Origin: an uncultured Actinomycetes bacterium | Lineage (GTDB): Bacteria; Actinomycetota; Thermoleophilia; RBG-16-64-13 | Length of the DNA: 64,000 bases | Reading direction: 5' to 3' | NCBI GenBank assembly: GCA_963841735.1 | Contig: CAWJDT010000001.1 | Coordinates: 160,001-224,000, forward strand | In this document: positions 23,749 through 64,000 of the stretch, piece after piece | Position numbering within the stretch: the first letter of the stretch is position 1 | Layout of the letters: each line of letters begins with the position of its first letter | The notes under the pieces: model-generated | What the model saw: the letters and a program-made list of their open reading frames with translations, nothing else | Database searches by the model: none | Told to the model about the DNA's origin: nothing | Position numbers and translations under genes: made by a program

Positions 23749-24422
23749 CCAACCTAGGAGCAGGCATGGCAGCGATCGATACTCTCGCAAACGCCCTGGT
23801 GGAACTCGACGAGGAAGGCACCCTAGGCATCGCCCGCGAGATCTTGGCGGAAGGAAACACCCCGACGCTCACCCTTATCAGCGCATGCCAACAGGCCATG
23901 CGCGTGGTGGGGGAGCGATACGAGCGCCAGGAATACTACCTAGCAGGCCTGATCCTAGCCGGAGAGCTGTTCAAGGAGGTCTTGGAGCTTGTAGAGCCGC
24001 AGGACGATGCGCCTCGCCACGTAGGCACCGCGGGCACGATCCTGCTGGCCACGGTCAAGGGCGATATCCATGATATTGGGAAGAATCTCTTCGCTTCCAC
24101 GCTTCGCGGATATGGCTTTGAGGTCGTCGACCTTGGCGTTGACGTGCCCAAAGAAGCCATAGCTGAGGCGGTCAACACATTCAGACCAGACGTCGTCTGC
24201 TTGTCGGGCCTCATCACCACGGCCTTCCAAAGTATGAAGGCCACTGTGGACTTGGTCCGGGCGCAGGTTCCCAAAGGCATGACTGCTCCCCCCGTGGTCT
24301 TGGGAGGAGGCACGGTGGACGATCAGATCTGCCGATACGCCGGAGCCGACTCCTGGAGCAGCGACGCTATCGAGGGCGTAAGGATATGTCTACGCCTGGT
24401 GGAGCAAGCGCGGCAGAGCTAG
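23745..24422 (+). CDS. Corrinoid (B12)-binding protein, MtaC/OdmA-like
   Basis: Cap M..VGERYE..EY.L, then GDIHDIGKN (DxHxxG), DLGVDV, SGL, GGG. ATGA overlap with the GntR stop; alternative ATG at 23766 with AGGAG. Confidence 0.9.
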   Translation: MTNLGAGMAAIDTLANALVELDEEGTLGIAREILAEGNTPTLTLISACQQAMRVVGERYERQEYYLAGLILAGELFKEVLELVEPQDDAPRHVGTAGTILLATVKGDIHDIGKNLFASTLRGYGFEVVDLGVDVPKEAIAEAVNTFRPDVVCLSGLITTAFQSMKATVDLVRAQVPKGMTAPPVVLGGGTVDDQICRYAGADSWSSDAIEGVRICLRLVEQARQS

Positions 24423-24459
24423 CAGGCTGCTGAACCCACGTGCTCTGGGCCCGCTTGCT

Positions 24460-27594: not shown

Positions 27595-27616
27595 GTTTCT
27601 CCCCCGACGTCACCGT

Positions 27617-29383: not shown

Positions 29384-29413
29384 TCTAGTTCTTCCCCTCG
29401 TCTAAAGCGAAGT

Positions 29414-44063: not shown

Positions 44064-44075
44064 ATCAACTCCCAC

Positions 44076-44903
44076 TTACTTGCTCAGCACTATCTCGCCA
44101 AGATAGATGTCCTTGGAGGTCTTGGCCTCGCGGCTTGCCGCCTTGTAGCCGGGCGCCTGCACTTTGACCGTGTATTTCGTATTCTCCGCCAGACCCTCGA
44201 ACTCAAAATCGCCAAAGCCGTTGGTCTTGGCGGTCTTCGTTGCCCCGTCGCCGCTGATGACGACTTCGATTCCGGTAGCGACCTCATCAACGTCTCCGTA
44301 GATGACGGTGCCGGCCACGAACTTCTTGGGCAGATGCTGGTAGACGACCTTCTCTCCCATGGCATATTCGGGACGCAGGGGCTCGGCCCCGGCGGCTACC
44401 AGCTTGGAAACTGCGCTGGCGGGATCGTCAAGATCACCGAAGACGAGAGCACCGCTGGGGCAGGACTCCACGCAGCGGGGTTCCTTCTCGCCGGCATCCA
44501 GAAGGTGGGCGCAGAAGGTGCACTTCTGGGCCAGTTGCAGCTCTGCGTTCCACTCGATCTGGCGATAGGGGCAGAGGTTGACCAGATCCTTGTTGCCCTT
44601 GGCTTTCTCCGGATCGATCAAGACGATGCCGTCGGCGCGGCGGTAGATGGCCCCGCTCTGGTCGAGCTTGACGCAGGACGCTGAGTCGCAGTGGCTGCAG
44701 GTCGTGACGACGTGGTCCACCTTGACATGGGGATACTGACCGCGCTCGATCTCGTTTACCGTTAGCCAGTTGCCGCCACTCATCGGCTGCGGCGCCGAGT
44801 AACCGGGGTACTCGTTACCCGCGTACTCGTCCCGGCAGGTGAGGAAGCAGTTGTAGCACCCCACACATGTATTGACGTTGATTACCATTCCATACCTGGA
44901 CAC
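44076..44903 (-). CDS. bthL: Transhydroxylase beta-subunit-like Fe-S protein, copy 2
   Basis: CVGCYNCFLTCRDE, ERG.YP, CSHC..ASC, DGIVLIDPEKAKG, CPY, KCTFCAHLLD, TNGFGDFEF. Confidence 0.85.
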   Translation of the reverse strand: MSRYGMVINVNTCVGCYNCFLTCRDEYAGNEYPGYSAPQPMSGGNWLTVNEIERGQYPHVKVDHVVTTCSHCDSASCVKLDQSGAIYRRADGIVLIDPEKAKGNKDLVNLCPYRQIEWNAELQLAQKCTFCAHLLDAGEKEPRCVESCPSGALVFGDLDDPASAVSKLVAAGAEPLRPEYAMGEKVVYQHLPKKFVAGTVIYGDVDEVATGIEVVISGDGATKTAKTNGFGDFEFEGLAENTKYTVKVQAPGYKAASREAKTSKDIYLGEIVLSK

Positions 44904-44905
44904 TG

Positions 44906-47440
44906 TTATGCCTCCCACTTGCAGACTTCGACGAGATAGGACATGTTGGCCTCGCCGCAGGCGTTCTTGCTGGTCCAGCGAGACGGCGACAGCAGGTTCA
45001 CGCAACCACCTCTGTCGATGCTCTTCGAATTGCCCGGCTCCAACGGATCGTACTTGGCACCCGCCTGGTACGAATGCACCAGACCCGGACGGACTCGCTC
45101 TGTCACCAAGGCCACGCCGAGCACTCTGGCGCGGTCGTTGTACACCATGACGAGGTCGCCGTCCTTGATACCCCGAGCCTCAGCATCGCCTGGGTTCAGG
45201 CGCATGGGCCAGTAGGCGTACCCGTCCTTGATGATGCGATGCTGGCGGATGTCGTTCAGCCAGTCGATCTTGTTGTCCTGGTGGGTGTGATACGAGAACT
45301 TAGCGTGCGGGGTCATGATGATCAGCGGGTACTTGTCGACCAAGCCCTTAGTCTCGTGACCCTCAAAGAGCGGGATGTAGCGCGGCATGATGGGCCGCTC
45401 TTCGTCATCAGGGAAGTACTTCTCCAGGATGGTGCGCTTGAACTCGATCTTGCCCGACGGGGTGGCCATCTCCGCGGCCTTGTCGGTACCCGCCATCGGA
45501 TTGAAGCGGTCGGGGGTGTCCACAGGGCGACCCTCGTAGTACCACTGGTTCGAGATGGTGGGCTTGTAGTCCTCGGGCAGTGAGGGCACTACGAAGTAGC
45601 CCTTCTTCTTAAACTCTTCGTAGGTGACGTGCTTGGGCAGATCGGTGATGTTGAAGACCTTCTTGATCCAGTCCTCTTCAGAGTTGCCTTCGGTGTACTC
45701 CTGCAGGAAGCCCAAGCGTTCGGCCAACTCGCAGTAGATCTGGTAGTCGGGCTTCGATTCCCACAGGGGCTCGATGCACTTCTGCTGGTACATGAGGATG
45801 CGGTGGTTGCAGTTGACGTTGCCGTTGCCATAACCACCCGGCTGAGCCCACTCCGAGATGTCTTCGTGCTCGAAGTTGGTGCTTGCCGGCAGGATGATGT
45901 CGCCGAACTTGGTCTCGCTCTGCCAGTGGCAGTCCTGCATGACCACAAACTCCAGCTTGGGCGACTGGTACATGCGCACCCACTTGCTGGTATCGCTCAT
46001 GGTGCTGATGAACGAGCCGCCGTGACGGTGGATCATGCGGATCTCAGCACCGTTGGGGCCGGCCTCGGGATACTGCATCTTCTTGAACTGCTGCTCGGGA
46101 TACTGCACACAGAAGCCCTCACCCAGCCATTCGAGATGCCCGTCGAGGATGGCCTCCGGAAGGTTCAGGCGATACACCTTCTGAGTGACCTCGTTGCGGT
46201 CGGGGAAGGTGGGCTGCTCGGCCACCAGGCCGAAGACGTCCCAACCGCAGTCTGAGTAGCCCGCGCTCTTGAACGTCATGTCGAGCGGAGCCCCGTGCGC
46301 GGTGCCGCCCCAGATGTTGACGCCCTCCTTGCCGATGCCCATCATAGAGGCAAGGTGCACGATGAGGCTGCACCATTCGGTGGCATAGGAGTTGCGGCAG
46401 GCACCAGCGGTGCCGTACATGGAGCCGGTGGCCAGCATGGTCTTCTTGGACATCCACTGCTTGGCCACAGCTTTGATGGTATGCGCGGGGATGTCGCAGA
46501 TGGGAGCAGCCCACTCGGGGGACTTGGGCACACCGTCGGTCTTGCCGAGGATGTAGTCCTTCCATTCGTCAAAATACATGGTGCGGTTCTCGACGAACCA
46601 GTGATCGTAAGTGTCATCCTGGATCCACTGATACGCGATGGCCTCCGCCAGAGCGGCGTCGGTGCCGGGACGCGGGGCAAGCCACTTGTCGGCCATGTGA
46701 GCGGCCGTAGCGTTGCAGTAGGGATCGATGAAGATCGCGCCGATGCCCAGTTCGCGCAGCCACTCGCGCCAGATGACCGTCTCTTGGCCGCCGTAGCCAC
46801 CGGCTGACGTGTTGGGATCGACCGACCAGTAGACCACCTGCTCGGTGTTCTTCATAGCCTCAGACAGCATGTCGAAGCAGTCGCACTGGCCAAACCGCCA
46901 GTACCAGCCCCAGGTGTGCATGCTGCCCCAGTGCCAGCCTTCCCAGCTATCCGGGTTGTCCAACAGCTGGGTGTAGCCCAGGATGTTGTAGAACCGGGGC
47001 ATGGGACCCATCTTGTAGTACAGAAGACCGTAGTTGTGGTGCGAGGACACGTAGGCCGTGACCGCGGCCTTCCCATAGGCGCCTTGGATGCGCTTGATCT
47101 CGCTGGTCACCAGGTCGAGAGCCTCGTCCCAGGTGATGCGCTCGTACTCGTCCTTGCCGCGCAGCTCGGGATGCCGCTCGCCGTTGGGATCGAAGTTCTT
47201 GCGCTTCATGGGGTACTTGATGCGGTTCTCAGAGTACACGCGCGTCCGCTCAGCGATGTTGAACGTGTTGATGGTGGTCTTGCGCGGGTCGCTGAACTTC
47301 TTGCCCTTGGCTTCGATGGTCCAGTGACCACCGTCTTCTTCGGTCAGGCGCAACGGACGCATGCGAGTGATGACCCCGTCCTTGACGGTGACCTTCAGCA
47401 TGCCTCCTATGCCTGTATTAATGAATTCCTGTTCTGCCAT
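44906..47440 (-). CDS. AthL-type Mo-bisPGD oxidoreductase large subunit, copy 2 (intact)
   Basis: [52 protein letters not shown]. Confidence 0.88.
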   Translation of the reverse strand: MAEQEFINTGIGGMLKVTVKDGVITRMRPLRLTEEDGGHWTIEAKGKKFSDPRKTTINTFNIAERTRVYSENRIKYPMKRKNFDPNGERHPELRGKDEYERITWDEALDLVTSEIKRIQGAYGKAAVTAYVSSHHNYGLLYYKMGPMPRFYNILGYTQLLDNPDSWEGWHWGSMHTWGWYWRFGQCDCFDMLSEAMKNTEQVVYWSVDPNTSAGGYGGQETVIWREWLRELGIGAIFIDPYCNATAAHMADKWLAPRPGTDAALAEAIAYQWIQDDTYDHWFVENRTMYFDEWKDYILGKTDGVPKSPEWAAPICDIPAHTIKAVAKQWMSKKTMLATGSMYGTAGACRNSYATEWCSLIVHLASMMGIGKEGVNIWGGTAHGAPLDMTFKSAGYSDCGWDVFGLVAEQPTFPDRNEVTQKVYRLNLPEAILDGHLEWLGEGFCVQYPEQQFKKMQYPEAGPNGAEIRMIHRHGGSFISTMSDTSKWVRMYQSPKLEFVVMQDCHWQSETKFGDIILPASTNFEHEDISEWAQPGGYGNGNVNCNHRILMYQQKCIEPLWESKPDYQIYCELAERLGFLQEYTEGNSEEDWIKKVFNITDLPKHVTYEEFKKKGYFVVPSLPEDYKPTISNQWYYEGRPVDTPDRFNPMAGTDKAAEMATPSGKIEFKRTILEKYFPDDEERPIMPRYIPLFEGHETKGLVDKYPLIIMTPHAKFSYHTHQDNKIDWLNDIRQHRIIKDGYAYWPMRLNPGDAEARGIKDGDLVMVYNDRARVLGVALVTERVRPGLVHSYQAGAKYDPLEPGNSKSIDRGGCVNLLSPSRWTSKNACGEANMSYLVEVCKWEA

Positions 47441-47561
47441 AACCTGTTCACTCCATGACTTGACTCGTGGACGCCAATATTCTCTCAGTCGCCTCTCGCC
47501 ACCTCGTCTACGACCACCCTGGCCCAAGAAGCTTGCACGACTTCTTGCCCATTGTGCCCCC

Positions 47562-50100
47562 CTAGCCTTCCCACTTGGCCACTTCGACCAAGCACGAGTT
47601 CTGAGCCTCGCCGGGCACGTTCTTTGACACCATCTTCATGGGTGTGAGCAAGTTCACGCAGCCACCCCGGTCGGGGCTGCCGGCCTTACCTGGCTCCAGC
47701 GGGTCGTACTTGGCCCCCGCCTCGTAGGAGTGCACGGTGCCGGGCCGCATGCGCCCGGTGACGATGGCAGCGCATATGACCGTGCCGCGGTCGTTGAAGA
47801 GCTTCACAAGGTCGCCGTGCTTGATGCCACGAGCCGCCGCGTCCACCGGGTTGATGCGAACGGGCCAGTACGCATAGCCGTCGATCTTGACCCGATGCTG
47901 TGGGATGTCGTCCAGCCAGTGGCTCTTGTTGTCGTTATGGGTGTGATACGAGAACCGCGGATGCGGCGAGATCATCTGCAGCGGGTACTTCTCCACCAAC
48001 TCAGAGGTGTTGTACCCTTCCCAGCTGGGGATGTACCGGGCCATGGGAGGCCGCTCTTTGTCGTTGGGGTCGAAGGCCATGAGGGTCTGCGACACGAACT
48101 CCACCTTGCCACTAGGCGTGGCCAGATTGGGCCCATTGTGCGGCGGGTTCGGCGGATTCCTCATCTCCGAGGGCACGTCGGCATCGCGGCCTTCATAGAA
48201 CCAGCGGAAAGATACGATTGGCTCTTCATCATCTGGCCTGCACGGCACCACGAAGTAGCCCTTCTCCTTGAACTCATCGAAGGTGACGTACTTGGGCAGG
48301 TCAGACTTGTCGAAGACTATGCGGTTCCAGTCGTCGATGGTGTGGCCTTCGGTGTACTCCTGCTCGATGCCCAGCCGCTTCGCGAGCTCCGTGTATATCT
48401 CGTAGTCGGGCTTCGACTCCCACAGAGGATCTATGCACTTGTGCTGATAGATGATCACCCGGTGGTTGCTGTTGAAGTCGTTGAAGCCGTAGCCGCCGGC
48501 CGCGCCCCACTCCGAGAGGTCGGAGTGCTCGAAGTTGGTGCTGGCGGGCAGGATGACGTCGCCGAACTTGGTCTCACTCTGCCAGTGGCAGTCCTGCATC
48601 ACGACGAACTCCAGGTTGGGGTGCTGATACATCTGCACCCACTTGTTGGTCTCGCTCATGGTGCTGATGAACGAACCGCCGTGGCGGTGGATCATCTTGA
48701 TGGGGGCGCCGTTGGGCCCTTCCTCCGGACAGGTGAAACGGTGGTACTGCTGCTCGATATTCTGGCCGCAGAAGCCCTCGCCTATCCAGCTGACCGGCGG
48801 GTTCATGACGATCTCGGGCAGCAGGTGGCGATAGGTCTTCTGAGACACCGGGTTGCCCACGGGAAAGTACGACTTCTCGGCCACCGTGCCGAAAGCGTCC
48901 CAGCCGTTATCGGAGTAGCCGAACATGTGGAAGCCCATGTCCAGAGGCGAGCCCTTGCCGGTGCCGCCCCAGAAGTTGACGCCCTCCTTGCCGAAGCCCT
49001 GCATAGCCATGAGATAGATGCACAAACGGCACCACTCAGTGGCGTAGGCCTGGCGGCAGGCACCGGTGGCTCCAAAGATGCTGGCCACAGCCAACATGGT
49101 CTTCTTGGCCGCCCACTCGCGCGCCAGAGCCGTGATGGTGTGAGCCGGGACGTCACAGATAGCCTCCGCCCACTGCGGGGTCTTGGGAGTCTTGTCCTCG
49201 CCCTCACCTAGTATGTGCTTCTTCCACTCGTCAAAGCCGTAAGTACGGTTATCTATGAAGAAGTGGTCGTATGTATCCTCGGTCAACCACACATAGGCGA
49301 TAGCCTCGGCCAGCGCCGCGTCGGTGCCCGGCCTAGGCGCTATCCACTTGTCGCCCATGGTGCTCATGGTGCAGTTGTTGTGCGGGTCGATGACCACGAA
49401 CTGGATGCCCAGCTCCTTCATCCAAATGCCGCCAGATCAGGTTGTCCTGGCCGCTGTACATGTAGGAGGTGCTGTTGGGGTCCACCGACCAGAAGATGAT
49501 CTGCTCGGTGTTCTTGAGCGCATCCTGCAGGAGTTCGGACTGCTCGCAATGGCCCAAACGCCACCAGTAGCCCCAGGTATGCGTGGCCCCCCAATGCCAA
49601 CCCTCCCAGCTGTCTGGGTTGTCGAGGCACTGGCTGTAGCCCAAGATGTTGAAGAAGCGGCCCAAGGGCCCGAGTTTGTAGTGCAGGAAGCCCCAGTTGT
49701 GATGGGACGAGGTCATCGCGGTGATGGCCGCCGGGCCGTGTTCCTTACGGATACGGGTGATCTCACCGGCCACAAGGTCGAGGGCCTCATCCCACGAGAT
49801 ACGCTCATACTCGTCCTTGCCCCTAAGCTCCGGATGCCGGTCGCCGTTGGGGTCGAAATTCTTCCGTTTCATCGGGTACTGGACGCGATTGGTGTACACC
49901 CGCTGCCGCTCCGGCACCTCGTAGCTCTGGAGGGTGGTCTTGCGAGGCGGGGTGAACTTCTGTCCATGGGCTTCGATGGTCCACGAGGGAGCATCGGTAT
50001 CGTCGAAGATTATCGGGCGCATCTTCGTGATGACCCCGTCTTCGACGAAGACCCTCACCGGACCGCCTACTGTGCACTGTATTAAGACCTGCTCAGACAT
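47562..50100 (-). CDS. AthL-type Mo-bisPGD oxidoreductase large subunit, copy 3; one frameshift
   Basis: ORFs 49333..50103 and 47562..49421 join as IWRH-WMKELG after removing one base at 49424-49426; same motifs as copy 2. Confidence 0.85.
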
Positions 50101-50604
50101 CAATTTCTCCCTGTTCGCTAGACCGGCCAGGCAACGACACCGCTAGGAAGTCCTTGTAGAGTAAGACCCAGTACCTTCTGCTAGGGCCTTGAGAACACTT
50201 CGGGGTACTACCTCTGGAAGGTGTCCAGGTTGTGCGCTCAAAGTCTACCAAGAACCCGCCCGAAACCACACCGGCAGACGGGCCATCAACGATACTGTCC
50301 GGCGTGTAAGGGGGGCCAGAGGCCACACACAGTGACCCTTGGCCCCCCACATCAGCCTGCAAGCGGATCGGAAGTCCTCCTCGACATCCAACGCGATCCG
50401 CGCCGTACTCCAGACCAGTACCAACTGGCCTTTCTCAGCTTGACGGTGCCCGCCTGATCGATCTCAAAAGCCTTCGGCTCGAGGATGTTCATCCTCTATT
50501 GGATCGATCTCCTAGACCATTGCTCTTTCATTTCTTACAAGACTCTCGAACTTGACTTGATCTCGGTTCCAAGACTAACCGAAGGCCTGCACCACCGCGC
50601 TCGA

Positions 50605-51927
50605 TCAACCTCCTCCTGCCGTCAGACCCGGCAGCCAAGTGCTGATCCAGGGCAAGAAGATGAGCAACACCAGCATGATGGCCATGGTGCTCACAAATGG
50701 CCAACACCCTCGGAAGATCGTATACATAGGCACATCTCTGTGCATGCCCGATATGGTGAACACCACTACTCCCACCGGTGGCGTGATGCACCCGATCATG
50801 ATGCAAAGCACCGTGACGACGCCCAACTGCAGCGGCGAGAAACCCAGGGTCACGGTCAACAGGTTGAAGAAGATGGGCAGAGTGATGATCATGACCGACC
50901 ATATGTCCATGAGGCAGCCCAGGATGAAGTAGAGCAGGCACACCATGATCAGGACCAAGTACTTGTTGAGTTCGGCCTCTACCAGCGCATTGGAAAGGCT
51001 TGTGGCGATTTCGGTGGAGGTCAGGAAGTAGCTGAAGTACCGGGCCCCCATGACAAGAAGTAGGATCATGGCTGACGTCTTGATTGCATCCATGAACGAG
51101 CGACCGAGAGCCTTCCAGGTGAGCTTCCGATACGCCAGGCTTGCCAACGTGATGGCGACAGTGCCTGCCGCCCCGGCCTCAGTAGGGGTGAATATGCCTC
51201 CCATGAGACCACCCATGACCACACCGAACACCACGATGATGCCAATCAGGCCCTTTAGTGAAATCAACCTCTGCTTCCAGCTCACCGCTCGTACTTTGAG
51301 GAGAGGCTGGGGTTCATCTTGCACTGCAGCCAGATCTGCGCCATGAACATGGCGGTCAGCAGGATGCCCGGGACTATGCCGGATATAAAGAGATCACTGA
51401 TGGACGTCTCGGTTATGAACCCGAAGACCACGAAAGCCGCGCTGGGGGGGATGAGGATGCCTAGGTTGCCACCGGCGCATATGGAGCCGAGGGAAAGGCT
51501 GTCCTTGTAACCATACCTTCTCATCTCCGGTAGGGCAGCCTTGTTCATGACGGCCGCCGTGGCGATGTTGTCACCGCAGACGGCCCCGAAGGCCGCGCAC
51601 GAGCCAACCGTGGCCATGGCCAAGCCACCTCGGTAGTGTCCCAGCCAGTTCTTGAAGGTCTCGAAAGCCGCGCGGATCACACCGCCCTCGCCGGCGATGA
51701 TGCCCATCACGACAAACAAGGGGATGATCACCAGAATCGGTGAGGAACCGACCTCGTAGATGGTTGTCGACAACCCAGCCTTCGCGGCTCGCCAAGCCTC
51801 GGGTCATCCAAAAACCCAAGAACCCTGCCACCATCAGCGACAGCCCCACGTGCAATTTCAGGAACATAAGGATGAAGAAGATCACCGACCCTATGACCGC
51901 GCTAGCCCACAAGGGAAGTGAGCTCAT
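50605..51927 (-). CDS. dctM: TRAP large permease; two frameshifts
   Basis: IPLFV.MG, GGLA, A.FGAVCG, LPEM..YGY, GG.LG.LIPPS, GIFTPTEAG, ITPPVG across three frames (breaks near 51790 and 51300). Confidence 0.85.
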
Positions 51928-52479
51928 CTCTTCACCGCCCTATCGATAGAAGTTCAACAACCTTAGCAACCATATGGGGATCAGAGTGGCCATCCCGAAG
52001 GCTGATAGATAAGCAAACGGGTAGATAGGCAAACCGAGCACTCCCATGGTCGTCTGCCCACGGCTCTGCACCTTGACGCCCCAGGACCACCAGTTGCCAG
52101 ACCGCTATGACCAAGATGACGACGGCGAGAGCGTAGATGATGGGAGCTACTGTCTTCTGCACCCTCTTCGGAAGATGGTTGGCCAGAACGTCTACAGACA
52201 TCTTCTCGTGTCCCATGTGCTCTAGCCCATGGCGGTGAAGACGATGATCACCAACGACTGCTCGATCAACTCCTGCGTGCCCGGCACGGGCGCACCGAAC
52301 TGCCGACCGATGATGGAGTACACGATCGTCAGAACAAGCGCACCCAGAACCGCGACACCGATGTACGCGATCCACGTGTAGACGGGCTTGAGAAACGCCT
52401 CGACTGAATTGACGAATGCGGATAGACCCGATGTAGGCTGCGCCCCCTCAGCCTCAGGTTGCCCATGTTCGCTCATCAT
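51924..52479 (-). CDS. dctQ: TRAP small permease; several frameshifts
   Basis: GRQFGAPVPG..EL, H..VD.L..LP, and corrected C-terminus VQSRGQTTMGVLGLPIYPFAYL; breaks near 52225, 52080 and probably 51950. Confidence 0.75.
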
Positions 52480-56678: not shown

Positions 56679-57197
56679 CTACCGCGCCGCACTGCTTTCT
56701 GCCTGCACCCTCGAAACGTACTGCACGCTGAGCTCTACATCCGTCAATCCAAGTTCGGCCAACGCCTGCTTCCTCAGCTTGCTTAGCGAAACGGCCAGCT
56801 GGTCGCGTTCGTCGGGTGTCAAGACCGACATGATCCGCTTGTCGGTCTCGTTGTGGAGCGATTGCCGGAGCGTCTCCGACCCCTTCTTGGTCAACTTGAC
56901 CACCGTCTTCGAACGACCCGAGCCCTGGTGCCTCGTCACCAAACCGTCCTTCTCCATCCTCTTGAGCATCTCGGTGATGGATTGGAGTTCCCTGAAGAAC
57001 CGACGACCGATCTCAGACGGAGTCGCTTGACCACCGTAGCTCTGGATCACCCACAAGAGGGCTCGTCGCTCGTTGCTGATGCCATACGGCTCATACTCGA
57101 CTTGGCGGGCCCTTAGGATGGCGTCCTTCGTCTGTGCTACGAGCACGAAGAGACCGAAATACTCGTCTGCCTTGAGCTCGCAGCCATCTGACACCAT
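56679..57197 (-). CDS. MarR-family transcriptional regulator
   Basis: YGIS.E...L, ATPSEI.R, SITE.LKRMEKDGLV.R, VKLT.KG. Confidence 0.88.
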   Translation of the reverse strand: MVSDGCELKADEYFGLFVLVAQTKDAILRARQVEYEPYGISNERRALLWVIQSYGGQATPSEIGRRFFRELQSITEMLKRMEKDGLVTRHQGSGRSKTVVKLTKKGSETLRQSLHNETDKRIMSVLTPDERDQLAVSLSKLRKQALAELGLTDVELSVQYVSRVQAESSAAR

Positions 57198-57213
57198 GTC
57201 AGCCCCTGTATCT

Positions 57214-57265
57214 AAGTTCGTATACGAAGTTGAGCGAGCGTATCGCACCCTAGAGCCAAAGTCAA
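57214..57265 (-). promoter_or_regulatory. marR promoter and palindromic operator
   Basis: -35 TTGACT (57260-57265), 17-bp spacer, -10 TACGCT (57237-57242); perfect palindrome TTCGTATACGAA (57217-57228) just downstream. Confidence 0.6.
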
Positions 57266-57305: not shown

Positions 57306-58694
57306 CTATTTCCCGCTCTTGAACGCCGCGTACTCGGCCATCCGCGAAAGCACGTACACCGCCCGCTTGGGATCAGAATAGGCCGCCACACCACGGTCAG
57401 CCAGGAAGGCGTACATCTCGGGCTCCGACTCGGGCAGCGCAAACACAGACACGGCCAGTGGTTTGCTGATGCTCTTGGCCGCGGCAGCCACATGCTCCAT
57501 ACAAGCCTGGACGGGCGTCGCTATCACCAGGATCATGTCGATGCCCTCATCCTCGGCCACGATCTCGATGGCCTTGGCATACAGGCTTGGATCCAGCAGC
57601 GAGGCCACGCCGGTGTCGATTGGATTGCCGAATCCTGTGCCCACAGGCGGGAGCACTTCGCGCAGACGTGCGATGGTCTTCTCGCTAGGCCGCGGAACTT
57701 CCAGGCCCATGGAGTAGCAGTTGTCGGCCGTGCCGACACCCGTACCGCCTTGGCCGGTGATGATGGCCACACGATTGCCCTTGGGCAGCGGCAGATAGTT
57801 GAAGGCCACCGCGCACTCCACCACGTCTTGCACGCTGTGCACCTGGATGATGCCGGCCTGCTTGAACATGGCCTGCCAGATGGCGGTAGAGCCGGCCAAC
57901 GCCCCGGTATGCGAAGCGGCGGCCCGCGCGCCCTGCTCGCTCATGCCGCCCTTCCAAAGGATGATGGGCTTCGTCTTGGAGACCTCGCGGGCCACCTCGA
58001 AGAAGCGACGACCGTCCTTGACGCCTTCCATGTACGAGACGATGGTCTTGGTCTGATCGTCTTGGCCCAGAAACTCCAGGTAGTCCTCGGCGGCCAGGTC
58101 GCACTCGTTACCGCAACTGACCACGCTACTGAAGCGCACGCCCTTGGTGGAGAGGAACCAGACCAGATAGTCGACGAAAGAGCCACTCTGAGAGACACCG
58201 CCGACAGTGCCCATCTCAGTGGGGACGCCCTTCATGAGCACCTGCGGATAGGTGACCACGCCGTTGCGCGGGTTGAAGAAGCCCAGGCAGTTGGGACCGA
58301 CGATGCGGCAACCGCCTTCGCGCCCGATGCGCCCTATCTCCTTCTCGAGCTCTTTGCCCTCGGGGCCCAGCTCACCAAAGCCGGATGCGAACACCACGGC
58401 GCCGCCGACCTCGTTCTGCACGCATTCCTTCACCAGCCCCAGCACCGCGTCGGGCGGGGTCAGCAGGATGGCTAGGTCGAGCTTCTCGGGGACGGCACTG
58501 ATGCTCGGATAGCACTTGATTCCCAGGACTTCCTCGCGCTTGGGATTGATCGGGTACAGCTTCTTGCAGCCGGCGTCCCGCATACCTTCCACGAATAGGC
58601 GTCCGAAGCTGCCTTCCTTATCAGTGGCCCCTACCAGTGCCACCGACTGAGCGTCGAAGATACGCTTGAGTTGTTCAATAGTCTCTGCCGACAT
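57306..58694 (-). CDS. ADP-forming acyl-CoA synthetase, CoA-binding/ligase (alpha) subunit
   Basis: SVALVGA, YPINP, SGF.E, GPNCLG, SQSG, GNE.D, YMEG, AASHTGALAG (phospho-His), NPID. Confidence 0.9.
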   Translation of the reverse strand: MSAETIEQLKRIFDAQSVALVGATDKEGSFGRLFVEGMRDAGCKKLYPINPKREEVLGIKCYPSISAVPEKLDLAILLTPPDAVLGLVKECVQNEVGGAVVFASGFGELGPEGKELEKEIGRIGREGGCRIVGPNCLGFFNPRNGVVTYPQVLMKGVPTEMGTVGGVSQSGSFVDYLVWFLSTKGVRFSSVVSCGNECDLAAEDYLEFLGQDDQTKTIVSYMEGVKDGRRFFEVAREVSKTKPIILWKGGMSEQGARAAASHTGALAGSTAIWQAMFKQAGIIQVHSVQDVVECAVAFNYLPLPKGNRVAIITGQGGTGVGTADNCYSMGLEVPRPSEKTIARLREVLPPVGTGFGNPIDTGVASLLDPSLYAKAIEIVAEDEGIDMILVIATPVQACMEHVAAAAKSISKPLAVSVFALPESEPEMYAFLADRGVAAYSDPKRAVYVLSRMAEYAAFKSGK

Positions 58695-58698
58695 ACCG

Positions 58699-59397
58699 TC
58701 ACTCTCCCAGGATCACGCGGGCATCGACGGCAATGGCACCCTTGGAGTACGCGAAGATGGGATTGAGATCCATCTCCTTGACCTCCGGGGTCTTGGCCAC
58801 GAAGTCCGACAAACGCATTAGGATGTCTTCGAGCGCGGCCTTGTCTACCGGCTCAGAGCCGCGGAACCCTTCCAAGAGTCGCGCCGCCTTGATCTCGGCG
58901 ACGGCCTTGGTGGCATCGCCCTTGGTGAGGGGCGCAAGCTTGAAGCTCACGTCCTTGAGCACCTCCACCCACACGCCGCCCAGCCCGAACATAAGCACAG
59001 GGCCGAACTGCGGGTCGGTCGCCATGCCCACGATGACCTCCAGCCCAGGCTTGGCCATGTCCTGCACGCTCACGCCTTCGATAGCGGCGGCCGGGTTGTA
59101 GGCCTTGCACGAAGCCATGATGGCGTCCCAGGCGTCGCCGACCGCGTCAGCGTCGGCTAGGCCCACCTTGACTCCACCGGCGTCGCTCTTGTGAGAGATG
59201 TCCTGCGAGGACACCTTGAGCACGCACGGGTAACCGATCCTCTTGCTCAGAGCCACCGCTTCTTCCTTGGAGGTGGCCAGCATCATCTGAGTTGTGGGGA
59301 TGCCAAGGCTGCGGAGCAGATCCTTGGATTCCATCTCGGTGAGAACGGTCCGCGACTCTTTGCGGGCCCTCTCGATTATTTCCTTCGCACTAGCCAT
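58699..59397 (-). CDS. ADP-forming acyl-CoA synthetase, ATP-grasp (beta) subunit
   Basis: LTE.ESK, GYP.VLK, HKSDAGGV, DPQFGP.LMFGLGG..VE.LKD, EMDLNP, DAR. Confidence 0.92.
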   Translation of the reverse strand: MASAKEIIERARKESRTVLTEMESKDLLRSLGIPTTQMMLATSKEEAVALSKRIGYPCVLKVSSQDISHKSDAGGVKVGLADADAVGDAWDAIMASCKAYNPAAAIEGVSVQDMAKPGLEVIVGMATDPQFGPVLMFGLGGVWVEVLKDVSFKLAPLTKGDATKAVAEIKAARLLEGFRGSEPVDKAALEDILMRLSDFVAKTPEVKEMDLNPIFAYSKGAIAVDARVILGE

Positions 59398-59466
59398 TTG
59401 TTACCTCAGAGTGTCAAAGCTCTTTTCGTGGAGGCCTGGTCCCGCGGCTCGGCCTCCACCACAAAC

Positions 59467-59498
59467 GTCCTCGCGGCGCCCGAAGGCGCCGCGAGGAC
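59467..59498 (-). terminator. Stem-loop after the BKACE gene
   Basis: GTCCTCGCGGCGCC-ttcg-GGCGCCGCGAGGAC (minus strand), followed by GTTTG. Confidence 0.65.
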
Positions 59499-59514
59499 TT
59501 GGATCTTGTCGCTG

Positions 59515-60333
59515 CTAGACGTTGACCAGGTCTGGGTGGAGCTTCAGACGCTCTACCACTTCCTGCACCGTGGCCGGCACCAGGTTCATGGACTTGGCCA
59601 CGCCCACCAACTGCTCGACCAGCTGAGCGTTGGACGTGGCGAGTTCTTTCGGCCTGATGTACAACGTGTCCTCAAGACCGACGCGCGCGTTGCCACCCAT
59701 GGCGAGGCCGATGGTGGTAAGCGGCAGGTTGGCCTTGGAGATGGCGATCACCTGCCAGCTGGTGTCCTCGGGCAGCTCACGCACGCAGTAGGCGAGCAGC
59801 ATGGGGTCGGCCTTCATGCCGCCGGGGGTGCCCATCACAAAGGAGACCTGCAACGGCAGCGTGACAAGCCCCTTCTTCACTAGGTTCAGCATGAGGGGGA
59901 TGTGACCCGTGTCGTAGATCTCGATCTCGGGCTTGATGCCCAGCTCGAGCATGCGCTCGGCGAGTTTGTACATCATCTTGGGCGGGTTGAGGAACTCGTT
60001 GTCACCCATGGTCATGCTGGCGGGGTTGAGGGTAGCCATGGCCGGCTTGGCCTCGACGATCTTCATGCGCTCCTCGTACGGCATGCCGCCGCCGGTGGAG
60101 AGCTGCACGATTCCCGGGCAAGCCTCGCGGACGAGTTCGACGGTCCTCCTGGCGACGTCAAGATCGCAGCTGAACTGGTCGTTGTCGCGCAAATGGATGT
60201 GGATGACGGATGCGCCGGCCTCATAGGCGCCCTTCGCGGCCTCCGCGATCTCCTCCGGGGTGGTCGGCATGGCCGGAGTGTCCTTCCTGAGGGCCGCGGG
60301 GCCGGTGAGTGAAGCGGTGATGATCGGATTCAT
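59515..60333 (-). CDS. Beta-keto acid cleavage enzyme (BKACE/Kce, DUF849)
   Basis: IITA.LTG, P.TPEEI, AGA..IHIH.R, STGG, KPE.E.YD.G, GGN.RVGLED, SNAQLV; ATGA overlap with the upstream AthL gene. Confidence 0.92.
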   Translation of the reverse strand: MNPIITASLTGPAALRKDTPAMPTTPEEIAEAAKGAYEAGASVIHIHLRDNDQFSCDLDVARRTVELVREACPGIVQLSTGGGMPYEERMKIVEAKPAMATLNPASMTMGDNEFLNPPKMMYKLAERMLELGIKPEIEIYDTGHIPLMLNLVKKGLVTLPLQVSFVMGTPGGMKADPMLLAYCVRELPEDTSWQVIAISKANLPLTTIGLAMGGNARVGLEDTLYIRPKELATSNAQLVEQLVGVAKSMNLVPATVQEVVERLKLHPDLVNV

Positions 60334-62981
60334 TGCGTGATGCCTCCTAGTCGAGCTTTGTCTGCAGTTTCCATCGTGTTGTCTCCCATGGCTCCCTCCC
60401 ACTTGTCCACCTGGATCAAGCAAGAGTTGGGCGCCATGCCCGTCGAAGTAGGTGTTACAAACCGCTTGGGTGTGAGTATGTTGATGCATCCCGCGGTGTC
60501 CGGCGAGTAACCGGGTTCGCCCAGTGGCAGATAGTCCGCGCACGACTCATAACAGTGTACAGTGCCTGAGCCCACTCGTTCCGTGACCTGGGCGGCAAGA
60601 ATGACCTCCCCGCGGTCGTTGAAACTCCGGACAAGGTCCCCGTCTTCGATGCCCCTGGCCTCAGCGTCCTTGGTGTTCAGGCGAATGATCCAATAGTGGT
60701 GGCCATCAATCAGAAGCCGGTGGTCCTTTATGTCATCCGACCAGGAGCCTTTGCCGTCACCCATGGTGTGCAAAGAGAAGCGGGGGTGGGGAGTCACCAG
60801 CTGAAGCGGGTAGTCTTCCAGAAGCTCCTTGGTGCGATGTCCTTCCCAACTGGGCATGTACTGCGGGCCCATGACCGGGCGTTCCTCGTCGACGACGCCA
60901 CCGGCGTAGAACCGCTCCAGGCTGGAAGCCACGAACTCTATCTTGCCCGAAGCCGTCTGCAGTCCCTTGAGTGCCACGGTGTCCCACGGTTTGGGCCCCA
61001 GGTCGGGCGTGTCGCGCTTCCGATCCTCCGCAAACCAGCGCAAGGCGGGAGTACGCGGCCTGTCGGCCGGCGCGGGCACCATATAGTAGCCCTTCTTCTC
61101 GAACTCCTCCCAGGAAACGCGGCTGGGCAGGTCACTCGCGTGAAATAGGCGCTTGACCCAGTCGAGGTCGCTGTGGCCCCCCTCGGTGTATATCTCGCCC
61201 ATACCCAAGCGATCGGCCAGAAGCGAGAAGATCTCGTAGTCGGATTTCGACTCGCCGAGAGGTTCGATGCACTTCTTCTGAAGCACTATGAGTCGATGGT
61301 TAGGCTGATCGGTCGCCGAGGCACCCGCTCCGGTGGGGCAGGCCCACTCTCCCAAGTCCCAGCGCTCGAAGTTGGTGCAGGCGGGCAGGATGACATCGGC
61401 GAACTTGGCCTCCCCTTCAAGCCAGATGGACTGGTTGACCACGAACTGGATCTTGCCTTCGCGATAGGCCTGCACGTAGCGGTTGGTCTCGGTCATGGTG
61501 CCGAAGAAGGAGCCGCCGTACTTGTAGTACATGCCGACCGGGGAGTATCCGGGTGCCGGGTACTCGTACTTCTGGAACTGCGACTCGATGGAAGAACCAC
61601 AGAAGCCTTTGCCCCGCCACTCCAGATGCTCGTGCATCATCGCCTCAGGAATCAAGAGGCGAGAGACCGTTTGGCCTTCCGTGGAGTGCTGAGGATTGGC
61701 CGGAGGGCCCCCATCGGGCCACAGACGATTGGCCAGACGAAAACCGGCCGCGGTGGTGGCATCGCCGGAGATACCACCCTCGTTGTAGCCCGGGAACCAG
61801 AACGTGGCGTCGCAAGGGACACCCTGCGTAGTGCCCCAAATGTTGCGGCCGGGCTTACCTAGGCCCTGCATGGCGGCCAAGGCGATCATGGTGCGGGCCC
61901 ATTCGTTGCCGGTGGCAGAACGGCACGCACCGCCGAAACCACCTTTGCCGCCGGCAGCCAGAGAGGTCTTCTTGGCGCCCCACTCCCGGGCCAAGGCTCG
62001 GATCTCTGGAGCGGGGATGCCACTTTCGCCCTCAGCCCAGGCGGGCGTCTTCGGACAGCCGTCGCTGTTTCCGAGCACGTACTCCTTCCACTCGTCGAAC
62101 CCCAGCGTATGGGATTCCACGTATTCCTTGTCGTACGTGCCCTCGGTGAGCCAAGTGTAGGCGATGGCCAAACCCAGAGCCACGTCGGTGCCCAAACGGG
62201 GAGCGAACCATTTGTCGGCAAACAAGCCGGCGGTGTGATTGAAATAGGGGTCGATGAAGATCATCTTCACGCCCAGTTCTTTCAACCAAAAACGGCGGGA
62301 CGTGCTTTCGAAGGCGCTGTAGATGCCTCCGCCCGTGCTCTCCGGGTCGGCGGACCAGAAGATCACCATCTCGGTGTTCTCAAGCGCGTCTTCCAGAAGG
62401 TCATACTGCTCGGGGATGCCCAGCCGGTGACTGAAGCCCCACATGTGCATGCCGCCCCAGTGCCAACCTTCCCAACTGTCGGGGTTGTGCTCCCCATAGG
62501 TGAAGCCCACCAGGTTCATGAAGCGGTAGTAGGCGCTCGTGCGATAGCCTACGATGCCCCACATATGGTGAGAGCCCGGGGAGGTGAGAATCGCCGCCGG
62601 CCCCAGTTCCCGCTTGAGCCGCACTATCTCATCGGCAACGATGCCGAGAGCCTCGTCCCAGCTGATGGGCTCATAACCGGAGACTCCGCGGTTTTGCGTG
62701 TTCCGCTCACCCTTGGGGTCAAAATCCACCCGCTTGAGTGGGGTGAGGATGCGGTCGGGCGAGTAGATGGTCGACTTCTGAGCGACCGTGTACGGTGACA
62801 ACGTCGTGCGGCGAGGGGGCGTGAAATCACGCCCCCTCGCATGTATGGTCCACGAAGCCCCATCACTGTCGTCCAGTTCCAGAGGGACGATGCGGAGGAT
62901 CTTGCCGGCCCGCACGTCCACGTGCACCGGCCCTCCGGTGGTGAGGTTGGTGAGCCGAACGACTCCCTCAGCTTTATCCAT
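60330..62981 (-). CDS. athL: AthL-type Mo-bisPGD oxidoreductase large subunit, copy 4, closest to pyrogallol transhydroxylase
   Basis: [86 protein letters not shown], all as recalled for P. acidigallici AthL. Confidence 0.88.
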   Translation of the reverse strand: MDKAEGVVRLTNLTTGGPVHVDVRAGKILRIVPLELDDSDGASWTIHARGRDFTPPRRTTLSPYTVAQKSTIYSPDRILTPLKRVDFDPKGERNTQNRGVSGYEPISWDEALGIVADEIVRLKRELGPAAILTSPGSHHMWGIVGYRTSAYYRFMNLVGFTYGEHNPDSWEGWHWGGMHMWGFSHRLGIPEQYDLLEDALENTEMVIFWSADPESTGGGIYSAFESTSRRFWLKELGVKMIFIDPYFNHTAGLFADKWFAPRLGTDVALGLAIAYTWLTEGTYDKEYVESHTLGFDEWKEYVLGNSDGCPKTPAWAEGESGIPAPEIRALAREWGAKKTSLAAGGKGGFGGACRSATGNEWARTMIALAAMQGLGKPGRNIWGTTQGVPCDATFWFPGYNEGGISGDATTAAGFRLANRLWPDGGPPANPQHSTEGQTVSRLLIPEAMMHEHLEWRGKGFCGSSIESQFQKYEYPAPGYSPVGMYYKYGGSFFGTMTETNRYVQAYREGKIQFVVNQSIWLEGEAKFADVILPACTNFERWDLGEWACPTGAGASATDQPNHRLIVLQKKCIEPLGESKSDYEIFSLLADRLGMGEIYTEGGHSDLDWVKRLFHASDLPSRVSWEEFEKKGYYMVPAPADRPRTPALRWFAEDRKRDTPDLGPKPWDTVALKGLQTASGKIEFVASSLERFYAGGVVDEERPVMGPQYMPSWEGHRTKELLEDYPLQLVTPHPRFSLHTMGDGKGSWSDDIKDHRLLIDGHHYWIIRLNTKDAEARGIEDGDLVRSFNDRGEVILAAQVTERVGSGTVHCYESCADYLPLGEPGYSPDTAGCINILTPKRFVTPTSTGMAPNSCLIQVDKWEGAMGDNTMETADKARLGGITQ

Positions 62982-62995
62982 TGTGCCGAGACCGC

Positions 62996-63337
62996 CTAGG
63001 TGTTGACGATCACCAGCATGACGGCCGGCTTGGTGCCGTTGTTGATGACCTCTCTGCCTTCATGCGGGCCGATGAAGATCGAGTCGAGCGGGCCTAGGAC
63101 GAATTCCTCATCCGTTCCCTTGACCGTGATCTCACCTTCGACGACCAGGTACACCTTCTCTTCTACCGAATCCTCGCCGCCCCATTCGATCCCGCCCCCG
63201 GGCAGATAGTGCGACACTCCGATCCAGAACTTCTCCAACCCAGATTCGGCCTTACCCTGCAGCTTGACGGAATTCACACCGAAGTGCTTCGGCGGAATGC
63301 CGTATTTCGTCATGTCAGCCCGCGCGATTTTCTTCAC
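62996..63337 (-). CDS. Small cupin-domain protein
   Basis: FWIGVSHYLPGGG, EKVYLVVEGEITV, LGP.DS.FI...E.R...N. Confidence 0.85.
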   Translation of the reverse strand: MKKIARADMTKYGIPPKHFGVNSVKLQGKAESGLEKFWIGVSHYLPGGGIEWGGEDSVEEKVYLVVEGEITVKGTDEEFVLGPLDSIFIGPHEGREVINNGTKPAVMLVIVNT

Positions 63338-63381
63338 TGGTCTATGACCTCCTGTCCGATGCCTCGACGCCTAGATGCCGG

Positions 63382-64000
63382 CTATGCCGCGTACAGTCCG
63401 CCGTCGACGTAGATGATCTGACCGGTGATGAAGTCAGACGCGTCCGAGGCCAACAGGATGATGGCGCCCAGCAGGTCCTCGGGCACGCCCAGACGAGCCT
63501 GGGGGATCTCCGCGGTCATCTTGGAGTAGATCTCAGGCTTAGAGAGGAATTCCTTGGTCATGTCGGTCATGATCAGGGCCGGGGCGACGGCGTTGACGTT
63601 GACGCCGTGCTTGGCCCACTCCACCGCCAACGTACGGGTCAGCTGGTGTACGCCGCCCTTGCTGGTGGCGTAAGCGGAGCCGCCCATGGAGGGGGCTACC
63701 CAGCCACGTACCGAACCCATGTTGACGATCTTGCCCTTCTTCTGCTCGATCATGAGCTTGCCCACGGCCTGGCAGGGCAGGAAGGTGCCCAGAGTGTTGA
63801 AACGGACTACCTTCTCGTACTCGTCGGCCGGCATCTCTTCGGCCGAGAAACGGCAGTTAATGCCCGCGACGTTCACGAGGATATCGATGTGGCCGAACTC
63901 CTTCTTGACCTCGTCGACCATCGCCTGCATCGACTCGGCGCTGGTTACGTCATACGAAACGGCCAGAGCCTTGCGACCCAGGGCCTTGATCTCTTCGGCC
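63382..64000 (-). CDS. SDR-family oxidoreductase (5' end outside the window)
   Basis: YDVT, FG.IDILVN.AG, GKIVNMGS, YATSK (YxxxK), VNAVAP, RLG.PED, ITGQ.IYVDGG. Confidence 0.92.
   Translation of the reverse strand, partial: AEEIKALGRKALAVSYDVTSAESMQAMVDEVKKEFGHIDILVNVAGINCRFSAEEMPADEYEKVVRFNTLGTFLPCQAVGKLMIEQKKGKIVNMGSVRGWVAPSMGGSAYATSKGGVHQLTRTLAVEWAKHGVNVNAVAPALIMTDMTKEFLSKPEIYSKMTAEIPQARLGVPEDLLGAIILLASDASDFITGQIIYVDGGLYAA

Follow-up and report, generated by a model that had tools for sequence, protein, structure and literature searches.

The minus-strand gene cluster at positions 57306-64000 of a 64,000-nt stretch of DNA from an uncultured actinobacterium (positions 160,001 to 224,000 of contig CAWJDT010000001.1; this whole stretch is called the window below) was analyzed. 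Genes were called from the list of open reading frames (ORFs) and from Pfam profiles, and equivalog scores were judged by the NCBIfam cut-offs. Six tightly packed genes were found. In the direction of transcription they encode a short-chain dehydrogenase/reductase (SDR), a cupin, an AthL-like protein (AthL copy 4) related to pyrogallol-phloroglucinol transhydroxylase, a beta-keto acid cleavage enzyme (BKACE) and the beta and alpha subunits of an ADP-forming acyl-CoA synthetase (ACD). The SDR and cupin genes are separated by 44 nt, the cupin and AthL genes by 14 nt, the BKACE and ACD beta genes by 117 nt and the two ACD genes by 4 nt, and the stop codon of the AthL gene overlaps the start codon of the BKACE gene in a 4-nt ATGA that was read in the sequence. 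A preliminary description of this DNA had listed six co-oriented genes with an ATGA-coupled AthL-BKACE pair, and both were found at the positions it gave. Its numbering of the AthL gene as a fourth copy was borne out by a tblastn search with AthL, which detected three further AthL-like regions in the window. These genes have not come together by chance, since their order is repeated in related genomes. The features are listed in Table 1.

Table 1. Positions of the genes and other features of the window.
Feature	Position	Strand	Remarks
SDR	63999..63382	-	205 aa, runs off the window end; PF13561 (E 2.3e-53), PF00106; candidate phloroglucinol reductase
Cupin	63337..62996	-	113 aa, GTG start, single-domain; PF07883 (E 1.1e-09)
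AthL copy 4	62981..60330	-	883 aa; PF21423 (AhtL-like first domain, E 4.5e-24), PF00384, PF01568
BKACE	60333..59515	-	272 aa; PF05853 (E 1.2e-86); candidate triacetate:acetyl-CoA acetoacetate-lyase
ACD beta (ATP-grasp)	59397..58699	-	232 aa; PF13549 (E 1e-86)
ACD alpha (CoA-binding and ligase-CoA domains)	58694..57306	-	462 aa; PF13607, PF13380, PF02629, PF19045
Hairpin, 14-bp, GC-rich	59467..59498	-	in the BKACE-ACD beta gap
MarR-family regulator	56679..57248	-	PF12802, PF01047; directly 3' of ACD alpha
Palindrome, perfect, 12-bp	57217..57228		about 20 nt upstream of the ATG at 57197
AthL copy 2, BthL, HMG-CoA-synthase-like/DUF35 fusion, thiolase	41438..47527	-	Pfam and NCBIfam
AthL copy 2	44909..47425	-	tblastn with copy 4
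BthL-like gene	44076..45005		beside AthL copy 2
HMG-CoA-synthase-like/DUF35 fusion and thiolase	41438..44075	-	after copy 2 and BthL
Thiolase	41438..42682		NF004810
AthL copy 1	11262..14359 (tblastn match 11262..13882)	-	split into 3 reading frames
BthL-like gene	10472..11314		beside AthL copy 1
AthL copy 3	47562..50103 (tblastn match 47565..50085)	-	split into 2 reading frames
TRAP transporter genes	51282..52375		fragmentary
O-demethylase-like set	14445..25731		
Paralogs of about 385 aa	55487..56641 and 31573..32733	-	48% identical
Hydantoinase-A-type (one) and hydantoinase-B-type (two) genes	25855..31492	-	

This region probably covers the distal two thirds of an operon that would serve the breakdown of trihydroxybenzenes of the anaerobic type. 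In Clostridium scatologenes the corresponding pathway consists of the phloroglucinol reductase PGR, which is an SDR, the Mn-dependent cyclase-family enzyme DPGC, TfD, which is similar to 3-hydroxyacyl-CoA dehydrogenases (HCDHs) but uses the free acid, and TAL, a BKACE with Trp16 in place of Kce Glu14 that converts triacetate and acetyl-CoA to acetoacetate and acetoacetyl-CoA (Zhou et al., mBio 2023, PMC10470551). The module fits the phloroglucinol-type lower pathway of the preliminary description, and the closeness of AthL, the cluster context and the absence of the Kce Glu residue support it. The further proposal that BKACE replaces a CoA-transferase/thiolase step is not new, as this is the published TAL reaction (PMC10470551); the pathway and its BKACE step are known already. 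Compared with the C. scatologenes cluster, an SDR stands at the place of PGR, a dehydrogenase of the HCDH family lacking CoA-binding residues at that of TfD (in the relatives of the window) and a BKACE at that of TAL, and the same overall chemistry is expected here. In contrast, the cyclase-family DPGC is absent from the window and from 13 of the 14 loci of its clade described below, relatives carrying genes for crotonase-fold hydrolases instead. Moreover, the cupin and AthL lie inside the operon here, Ala occupies the position of TAL Trp16 in the window BKACE, and ACD takes the place of phosphotransacetylase and acetate or butyrate kinase.

Related loci were collected by a genome scan with an alignment of 30 BKACE sequences (drawn from 2378 matches). 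In total 547 relatives were confirmed and the best 80 loci, designated by L numbers, were analyzed, their neighboring genes being mapped by tblastn with the window proteins and with Pfam-identified proteins of L044, L021 and L054. All but four of the 80 loci belong to Actinomycetota (L047 and L052 to Bacillota, L079 to Acidobacteriota). The closest ones, with BKACEs 91-92% identical to that of the window, come from metagenome-assembled genomes (MAGs) of uncultured Actinomycetota, Thermoleophilia and Gaiellales, and the host is an uncultured actinobacterium akin to the Thermoleophilia and Gaiellales MAGs. In the BKACE tree the clade of the window comprises 16 rows, namely 15 loci and the window itself (Shimodaira-Hasegawa-like approximate likelihood ratio test, SH-aLRT, 99); on the basis of their gene order and BKACE identity, L033 and L045 were included as well, which brings the clade to 17 loci.

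The conserved core across the 80 related loci is SDR, cupin and BKACE. Gene content was counted in three groups, using only loci with at least 6000 bases upstream. The 14 informative loci of the window's clade carry genes for HCDH (14), SDR (14), cupin (10), a crotonase-fold protein of the ECH_1 family (12), cyclase (1) and AthL within 10 kb (10), and ACD then follows BKACE in 12 of the 15 clade loci with downstream sequence. The next group (21 loci, BKACE 64-69% identical) carries HCDH (20), SDR (20), cupin (20), cyclase (20), AthL within 10 kb (17), no ECH_1 and one ACD match, which belongs to L013 and is just 33-34% identical. The distant group of Mycobacterium, Solirubrobacterales and Acidimicrobiia (25 loci) carries HCDH (19), SDR (21), cupin (20) and cyclase (21) and has neither ECH_1 nor AthL nor ACD. 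Both of the more distant groups share SDR, HCDH, cyclase, cupin and BKACE. Most loci in the two nearer groups have an AthL-like gene within 10 kb, which links the cluster with pyrogallol and phloroglucinol.

The BKACE matches PF05853 over profile positions 3-274 of 274, and among solved structures Kce (2y7d_A, E 2.6e-56) is closest to it. VIHIHLRD and GLEDT of the window protein correspond to IHLHIRE and GFEDN in 2y7d, the HxH and E-D motifs being kept in the window and across the 78 BKACE sequences compared, with one variant (HFH); we take HxH and the Glu residue to bind the metal ion. The residues aligned with Kce Arg226 and Glu143, which presumably have functional roles in Kce, are kept as well. 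The difference from Kce lies at its residue Glu14, which binds the 5-amino group (PMC10470551). This position is occupied by Ala13 in the window BKACE and by Ala, Val or Ile in 78 of 78 sequences, never by Glu or Trp, which argues against the amino substrate of Kce. Assignment of the BKACE as a Kce of lysine fermentation was rejected, Glu14 being absent and no lysine-fermentation genes being seen among the Pfam matches of the window. In Thermoleophilia and Mycobacterium, homologs of the BKACE gene are found in clusters together with SDR, HCDH-like and cyclase genes. The Mycobacterium clusters were counted as phloroglucinol clusters (PMC10470551, section 4, Supplementary data 2), and the contig NZ_VTZN01000085.1 of M. 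simiae, our locus L059, matches PGR, TfD and DPGC of C. scatologenes with 40.8, 40.9 and 40.1% identity, respectively (PMC10470551). In L059 the BKACE gene is located at about 3535-4356, beside the DPGC gene at 4702-5527. The pathway role of this BKACE lineage rests on its gene context and the missing Glu residue.

AthL copy 4 matches the large subunit of the transhydroxylase of Pelobacter acidigallici (4v4c_A) with 1172 bits (E 0) over residues 7-864, whereas the scores are 817 bits for copy 2 and, over 534 aa, 656 bits for a 551-aa piece from the middle of copy 1; by these scores, copy 4 is the window's nearest relative of the characterized pyrogallol-phloroglucinol transhydroxylase. An AhtL-like first domain is combined in it with a molybdopterin oxidoreductase and a dinucleotide-binding domain. 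The positions aligned with His144, Arg153, Asp174, Ser175 and Tyr404 are conserved, as is FPGY; in the solved enzyme we take Ser175 to be the Mo ligand and the other four to be active-site residues contacting the substrate pyrogallol. The position aligned with Tyr560, a residue that we assume with low confidence to be important in the transhydroxylase, is occupied by Ala. No signal peptide extension was seen on copy 4, its residue 7 aligning with residue 4 of 4v4c_A. Thus, the full-length alignment, the AhtL-like and MopB domains, the aligned residues and a cytoplasmic protein without signal extension are shared with AthL/BthL of P. acidigallici (4v4c, 4v4d, 4v4e). The differences are the missing adjacent beta gene, an altered loop and the translational coupling of AthL to BKACE.

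Over its 205 aa the window SDR shares 93.7% identity with residues 47-251 of the SDR of L044 (251 aa), placing its first approximately 46 codons past the window end. It has the classical SDR fold (PF13561, PF00106), and its YxxxK stretch reads AYATSK. Its identity to the Mycobacterium SDR is 37.5-40%, and that of the latter to PGR of C. scatologenes is 40.8% (PMC10470551). Its gene context suggests that the SDR is a candidate phloroglucinol reductase.

Several observations weigh against this reading of the operon. Genes for a ring hydrolase and for TfD are missing from the 64-kb window, in which neither a cyclase nor a crotonase-type homolog was found, and a strong hairpin stands between the BKACE and ACD genes in this genome. 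The best solved relatives of the SDR, searched with the L044 homolog, are sugar-acid dehydrogenases such as gluconate 5-dehydrogenase (1vl8). In the SDR tree, drawn to judge orthology with PGR, each of the four SDR groups linked to the clusters is monophyletic, and the groups are mutually only 37-44% identical. PGRs carry the NADPH motif TR(S/N) (PMC10470551), a site that in the window SDR falls past position 64000, and at this site the full-length SDR homologs of L044 and L002 have Asp-Asp; homologs 86-96% identical to the window SDR (L044, L002, L003) read DDL there, and other clade members read TSRD. The BKACE lacks the Trp residue of TAL and stays below every NCBIfam equivalog cut-off, with 264 bits for Kce (cut-off 382), 199.5 bits for 3-oxoadipate:acetyl-CoA acetyltransferase (cut-off 350) and 167 bits for 3,5-dioxohexanoate:acetyl-CoA acetone transferase (cut-off 430). 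The cblaster table of PMC10470551 lists no TAL match on the M. simiae contig despite the adjoining BKACE gene, which indicates that this BKACE lineage is far removed from the characterized TAL. In AthL copy 4 the loop NCSGYIPDN of the solved enzyme (residues about 556-565) is replaced by WACPTGAGAS. Finally, no BthL gene lies beside copy 4, whose neighbors are the cupin gene upstream and the BKACE gene downstream.

The order of the BKACE scores, in which the Kce and 3-oxoadipate models outrank the 3,5-dioxohexanoate model while all three remain below their cut-offs, would also be consistent with an enzyme that acts, together with its neighbors, on another beta-keto acid such as 3-oxoadipate or a polyketide-like acid, the link to phloroglucinol being coincidental. 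The absence of the TAL-specific Trp and of a TAL match for this lineage in the published cblaster table (PMC10470551) point in the same direction. We consider this explanation very unlikely, because Kce Glu14 is absent from all 78 sequences, the lineage is embedded in clusters whose SDR, HCDH and cyclase are about 40% identical to characterized phloroglucinol enzymes, and, in the two nearer groups, 27 of the 35 informative loci have AthL-like genes in addition to BKACE.

A second alternative concerns AthL copy 4, which might be another hydroxyl-transferring or hydroxylating enzyme that acts on another phenol, such as hydroxyhydroquinone, tetrahydroxybenzene or resorcinol, and feeds the same lower pathway. 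BthL-like genes were found in the window only beside copies 1 and 2. In the related genomes tblastn gave no BthL match beside the in-operon AthL in any of the seven AthL-adjacent loci, five of which were re-examined. The loop WACPTGAGAS is shared by the in-operon AthL subfamily, whereas the BthL-linked copy of L042 carries NCSGYIPDN like the solved enzyme, and the presence of four paralogs in one window suggests divergent substrates. These points favor a different phenol. They are opposed by the bit scores, which place copy 4 closest to the characterized enzyme, and by the conservation of the presumed Mo ligand and pyrogallol contacts, so that we regard this alternative as unlikely and pyrogallol as the substrate to be expected of copy 4.

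The genes for ring opening and for the TfD-like step would be expected beyond position 64000. An HCDH gene lies directly upstream of the SDR gene in 15 of 15 SDR-bearing clade loci and ends 34-93 nt before it. TfD has lost the CoA-contact residues Lys56 and Asn221 (PMC10470551). Compared with 3-hydroxybutyryl-CoA dehydrogenase (HBD) of C. butyricum (4kug), the HCDH of L044 has Leu and Gly at the positions of Lys56 and Asn221, respectively, and retains His138 and Asn188; moreover, HBD Ser117 is replaced by Gly in this protein and its clade. The HCDHs of the clade mostly carry Ala-Arg-Arg where those of the other groups have Asp, which, taken with the SDR motifs, gives a mixed picture of the cofactors. 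The losses in the L044 protein match those of TfD, which fits free triacetate as the substrate of BKACE.

The best solved relatives of the clade's ECH_1 proteins are 6-oxocamphor hydrolase (1o8u, 1szo; E 6.8e-32) and the beta-diketone hydrolase of Anabaena (2j5g, 2j5s; E 4e-28), the next match being the nearest enoyl-CoA hydratase (E 1.7e-20). In both ECH_1 paralog types the residues at the positions of His122, His145, Asp154 and Glu244, which we take to be the catalytic residues of 6-oxocamphor hydrolase, are retained. The ECH_1 proteins of the relatives differ from that enzyme by about 45 extra N-terminal residues. Moreover, 6-oxocamphor hydrolase acts on a bicyclic diketone, whereas the substrate of ECH_1 would be dihydrophloroglucinol or possibly triacetate. 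In L001, L009, L011, L012 and L014 the crotonase-fold genes form tandem pairs of two types, the products showing 46-50% and 79-91% identity with the L044 protein, and in L012 and L014 the pair is located between BKACE and ACD, not upstream.

The distribution of the two hydrolase types is complementary: within the window's clade, 12 of 14 loci have the crotonase type and 1 of 14 the cyclase, against 0 of 46 and 41 of 46, respectively, in the other two groups. Together with the fact that dihydrophloroglucinol is a cyclic beta-diketone, this suggests a non-orthologous replacement of the ring hydrolase. From the relatives, a TfD-like dehydrogenase and a crotonase-fold beta-diketone hydrolase, not a cyclase-type enzyme, are predicted past position 64000. 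Some points speak against such a replacement. A cyclase gene is present 5.6 and 8.2 kb downstream in L009 and L045, beside another AthL-like gene, no crotonase-type gene was seen in L006 and L015, and the ECH_1 proteins may instead serve to hydrolyze triacetate. Literature searches returned no paper linking phloroglucinol with diketone hydrolase, oxocamphor hydrolase or crotonase.

The preliminary description knew of no described coupling of AthL and BKACE, and our full-text literature searches likewise found none; the junction itself, however, is a local variant. Among the 73 loci with at least 500 bases upstream of BKACE, the gene directly upstream encodes a cupin in 44, HCDH in 10, AthL in 7, a cyclase in 3 and another or unrecognized protein in 9. 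The seven loci with AthL in this position (L004, L007, L008, L012, L014, L015 and L033) are all in the window's clade. The exact gene order of the window was found in L004 and L014, the cupin being absent from L007, L012, L015 and L033 and L008 being too short to tell. On the BKACE tree the junction needs four changes, three of them forced by well-supported branches (L033 lies outside the tree), and in the five-row tree group nearest to the window it is present only in the window, L005 having no upstream sequence. The idea that the junction defines an ancient coupling was rejected on account of this scatter within one clade. As AthL is usually nearby in this lineage, the scattered junction points to recurrent local rearrangement and not to a fixed coupling.

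The cupin is a conserved extra component of these clusters. It scores 77 bits against NCBIfam NF050094, a model built on an M. tuberculosis protein, with a cut-off of 175. Its AlphaFold model (predicted local distance difference test, pLDDT, 91.1) matches the folds of the Mn cupin TM1459 and of the polyketide cyclase RemF, both with a template modeling (TM) score of 0.82. By sequence, nothing better than E 0.003 was obtained against solved structures, and the fold search returned generic small cupins only. The residues H18, Q27, S42, E60, Y63, E69, D85, S86, E93, R95 and N99 are conserved family-wide. No conserved HxH or His cluster, as in metal-binding Cupin_2 proteins, was found across the family, and His43 of the window protein is not kept in Mycobacterium.

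In the Mycobacterium loci L054-L077 a cupin of the Rv1717 family is encoded between the cyclase and BKACE genes. These loci and Rv1714-Rv1718 of M. tuberculosis have the same gene order, SDR, HCDH, cyclase, cupin and BKACE, the last of these presumably being Rv1718. Compared with the window, the Mycobacterium cupins are 33-41% and the BKACEs 53-56% identical, and the Mycobacterium loci are devoid of AthL and ACD. Rv1714-Rv1716 were described as about 40% identical to Clostridium polyphenol genes (PMC5894108), and Rv1717 was published as a cupin cell-wall beta-galactosidase (PMC7873859). The position of the cupin in the Mycobacterium clusters suggests a metabolic role that is worth re-examining.

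The ACD consists of an alpha subunit and an ATP-grasp beta subunit with His-bearing motifs as in 4xyl and 2csu. The alpha subunit matches 4xyl_A (E 2.5e-82) and 2csu_A (E 5.1e-83) and keeps the loop SHTG(A/S)LAGS (SHTGALAGS in the window), and the beta subunit matches 4xyl_B (E 6e-67) and keeps the motif HKSD(A/V)GGV (HKSDAGGV in the window). The enzyme of 4xyl, which we take to be that of Candidatus Korarchaeum cryptofilum, shares the separate alpha and beta subunits, the domain set and the His motifs; the differences are the bacterial host and the location of the genes within an aromatic-degradation operon. Against TIGR02717 (acetate--CoA ligase) the alpha subunit scores 428.9 bits (cut-off 567), and other ligase models remain far below their cut-offs. 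The ACD is expected to recover ATP from acetyl-CoA.

Alternatively, the ACD might mainly have an activating function and form acetoacetyl-CoA from the acetoacetate freed by BKACE instead of harvesting ATP. This would agree with the score of the alpha subunit below the acetate--CoA ligase cut-off, with matches of the subunits to the models for 3-hydroxypropionate and 4-hydroxybutyrate ADP-forming ligases, and with the Pfam matches of the module, among which no CoA-transferase gene was identified. The best solved relatives, however, are NDP-forming acetyl-CoA/acyl-CoA synthetases, and a phloroglucinol fermenter needs substrate-level phosphorylation, for which no phosphotransacetylase/acetate kinase was seen among the Pfam matches of the window. 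A predominantly activating ACD thus appears rather unlikely, although the two directions are compatible with each other.

Acetoacetyl-CoA would be split by a thiolase encoded elsewhere in the window, which exceeds the cut-off of NF004810 (546.7 bits, cut-off 403). Its gene follows AthL copy 2, BthL and the gene of an HMG-CoA-synthase-like (HMGCS) protein fused to a DUF35 zinc-ribbon/OB domain, a thiolase/HMGCS/DUF35 trio that presumably resembles an archaeal set. In L009, L015 and L045, BthL, HMGCS/DUF35 and thiolase genes are located directly upstream of the SDR-BKACE-ACD cluster, and these thiolases are 88-93% identical to that of the window. AthL copy 2, BthL, HMGCS-DUF35 and thiolase therefore probably belong to the same pathway, and thiolysis of acetoacetyl-CoA is the step suggested for them.

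Taken together, these comparisons suggest that the operon probably enables an uncultured soil actinobacterium to ferment plant-derived trihydroxybenzenes to acetate. AthL copy 4 would isomerize pyrogallol to phloroglucinol, as its homology indicates, and the SDR would, by its context, reduce phloroglucinol to dihydrophloroglucinol. To judge from the relatives, a ring hydrolase, probably of the crotonase type, would open dihydrophloroglucinol to 3-hydroxy-5-oxohexanoate, and a TfD-like HCDH (3-hydroxy-acid dehydrogenase) would oxidize the latter to triacetate. The BKACE, a member of a divergent lineage, would then convert triacetate and acetyl-CoA to acetoacetate and acetoacetyl-CoA, the acetoacetyl part being transferred. 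Finally, the thiolase would split acetoacetyl-CoA to acetyl-CoA, from which the ACD would form acetate and ATP. No CoA-transferase for free acetoacetate was seen among the Pfam matches of the window, and the ACD could also serve this activation. The direct evidence consists of homology, gene order and its conservation and the motifs named above, and all substrates of the proposed route were deduced from it.

We tentatively propose that the known pathway might have been rebuilt here in four ways, by a crotonase-fold ring opening, an AthL without Fe-S partner translationally coupled to BKACE, a small cupin component of the Rv1717 family that lacks the usual metal site and an archaeal-type ACD. 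The ring opening would be a CoA-independent retro-Claisen step replacing the cyclase-family DPGC. The beta-less AthL in a lower-pathway operon, the conserved cupin, the ACD and the probable swap of the ring hydrolase in the relatives were not described in the literature searched. The main text of PMC10470551 mentions neither cupin nor ADP-forming and contains the word crotonase once, in the title of a reference. Without oxygen, the mineralization of tannins and flavonoids is channeled through phloroglucinol. Published surveys of gene clusters look for the four Clostridium enzymes. A lineage that has no cyclase-type hydrolase and whose BKACE is too distant to be picked up would probably be missed by such a survey, and with it soil and sediment Actinomycetota in estimates of polyphenol turnover based on metagenomes. 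Candidates for testing are a dihydrophloroglucinol hydrolase unrelated to the known one, a transhydroxylase without beta subunit and a conserved cupin to which a very different function has been assigned in Mycobacterium.

The hairpin between the BKACE and ACD beta genes contains 12 G-C pairs, has a tail poor in T and was found only once in the window; a folding energy of -42.8 kcal/mol (z -3.2) was computed for the surrounding 81 nt. It was the sole standout of a promoter and terminator scan of positions 56500-64000, in which the counts were not above those of shuffled sequences (promoter-like 1 vs a mean of 1.6, terminator-like 5 vs 4.6), and an Rfam scan of the whole window gave 0 matches. 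In 8 of the 12 clade relatives with ACD the gap between BKACE and ACD beta measures 10-73 nt; the remaining four gaps are 126 (L001), 234 (L033), 1771 (L012) and 1917 nt (L014), BDH genes intervening in the last two loci. The hairpin may be a partial terminator or an RNA-stabilizing element.

The MarR-family protein is likely a local regulator, because its position 3' of ACD is conserved in relatives: in L002, L007 and L044 the ACD genes are followed by genes for MarR, a 384-aa protein and a lactonase. The ATG at 57197 is, to judge from the sequence, more likely the start of the MarR gene than the listed GTG at 57248, and the palindrome TTCGTATACGAA upstream of this ATG is a candidate operator.

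Elsewhere in the window, the TRAP (tripartite ATP-independent periplasmic) transporter genes are fragmentary, a 163-aa piece matching positions 45-191 of the 413-position DctM profile. They and the broken AthL copies 1 and 3 may be pseudogenes or reflect assembly indels. A further set of genes encodes URO-D-like methyltransferases, a corrinoid-binding protein, a GCV_T-like protein and a branched-chain-type ABC transporter and looks like an O-demethylase system for methoxylated aromatics. O-demethylase-like genes are also located directly upstream of the phloroglucinol-type cluster in L002 (3078-5595) and L044 (912-5367).

The two paralogs of about 385 aa gave no Pfam match even at E 1, and an Atlas feature search pointed to NicX/peptidase-M29-like clusters (0.95). 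In L002, L007 and L044 one copy is conserved between the genes for MarR and a 7-bladed lactonase, and in L014 it lies ahead of the lactonase gene. The second copy adjoins the hydantoinase/oxoprolinase-type genes, whose best NCBIfam matches are caprolactamase subunits, far below the cut-off.

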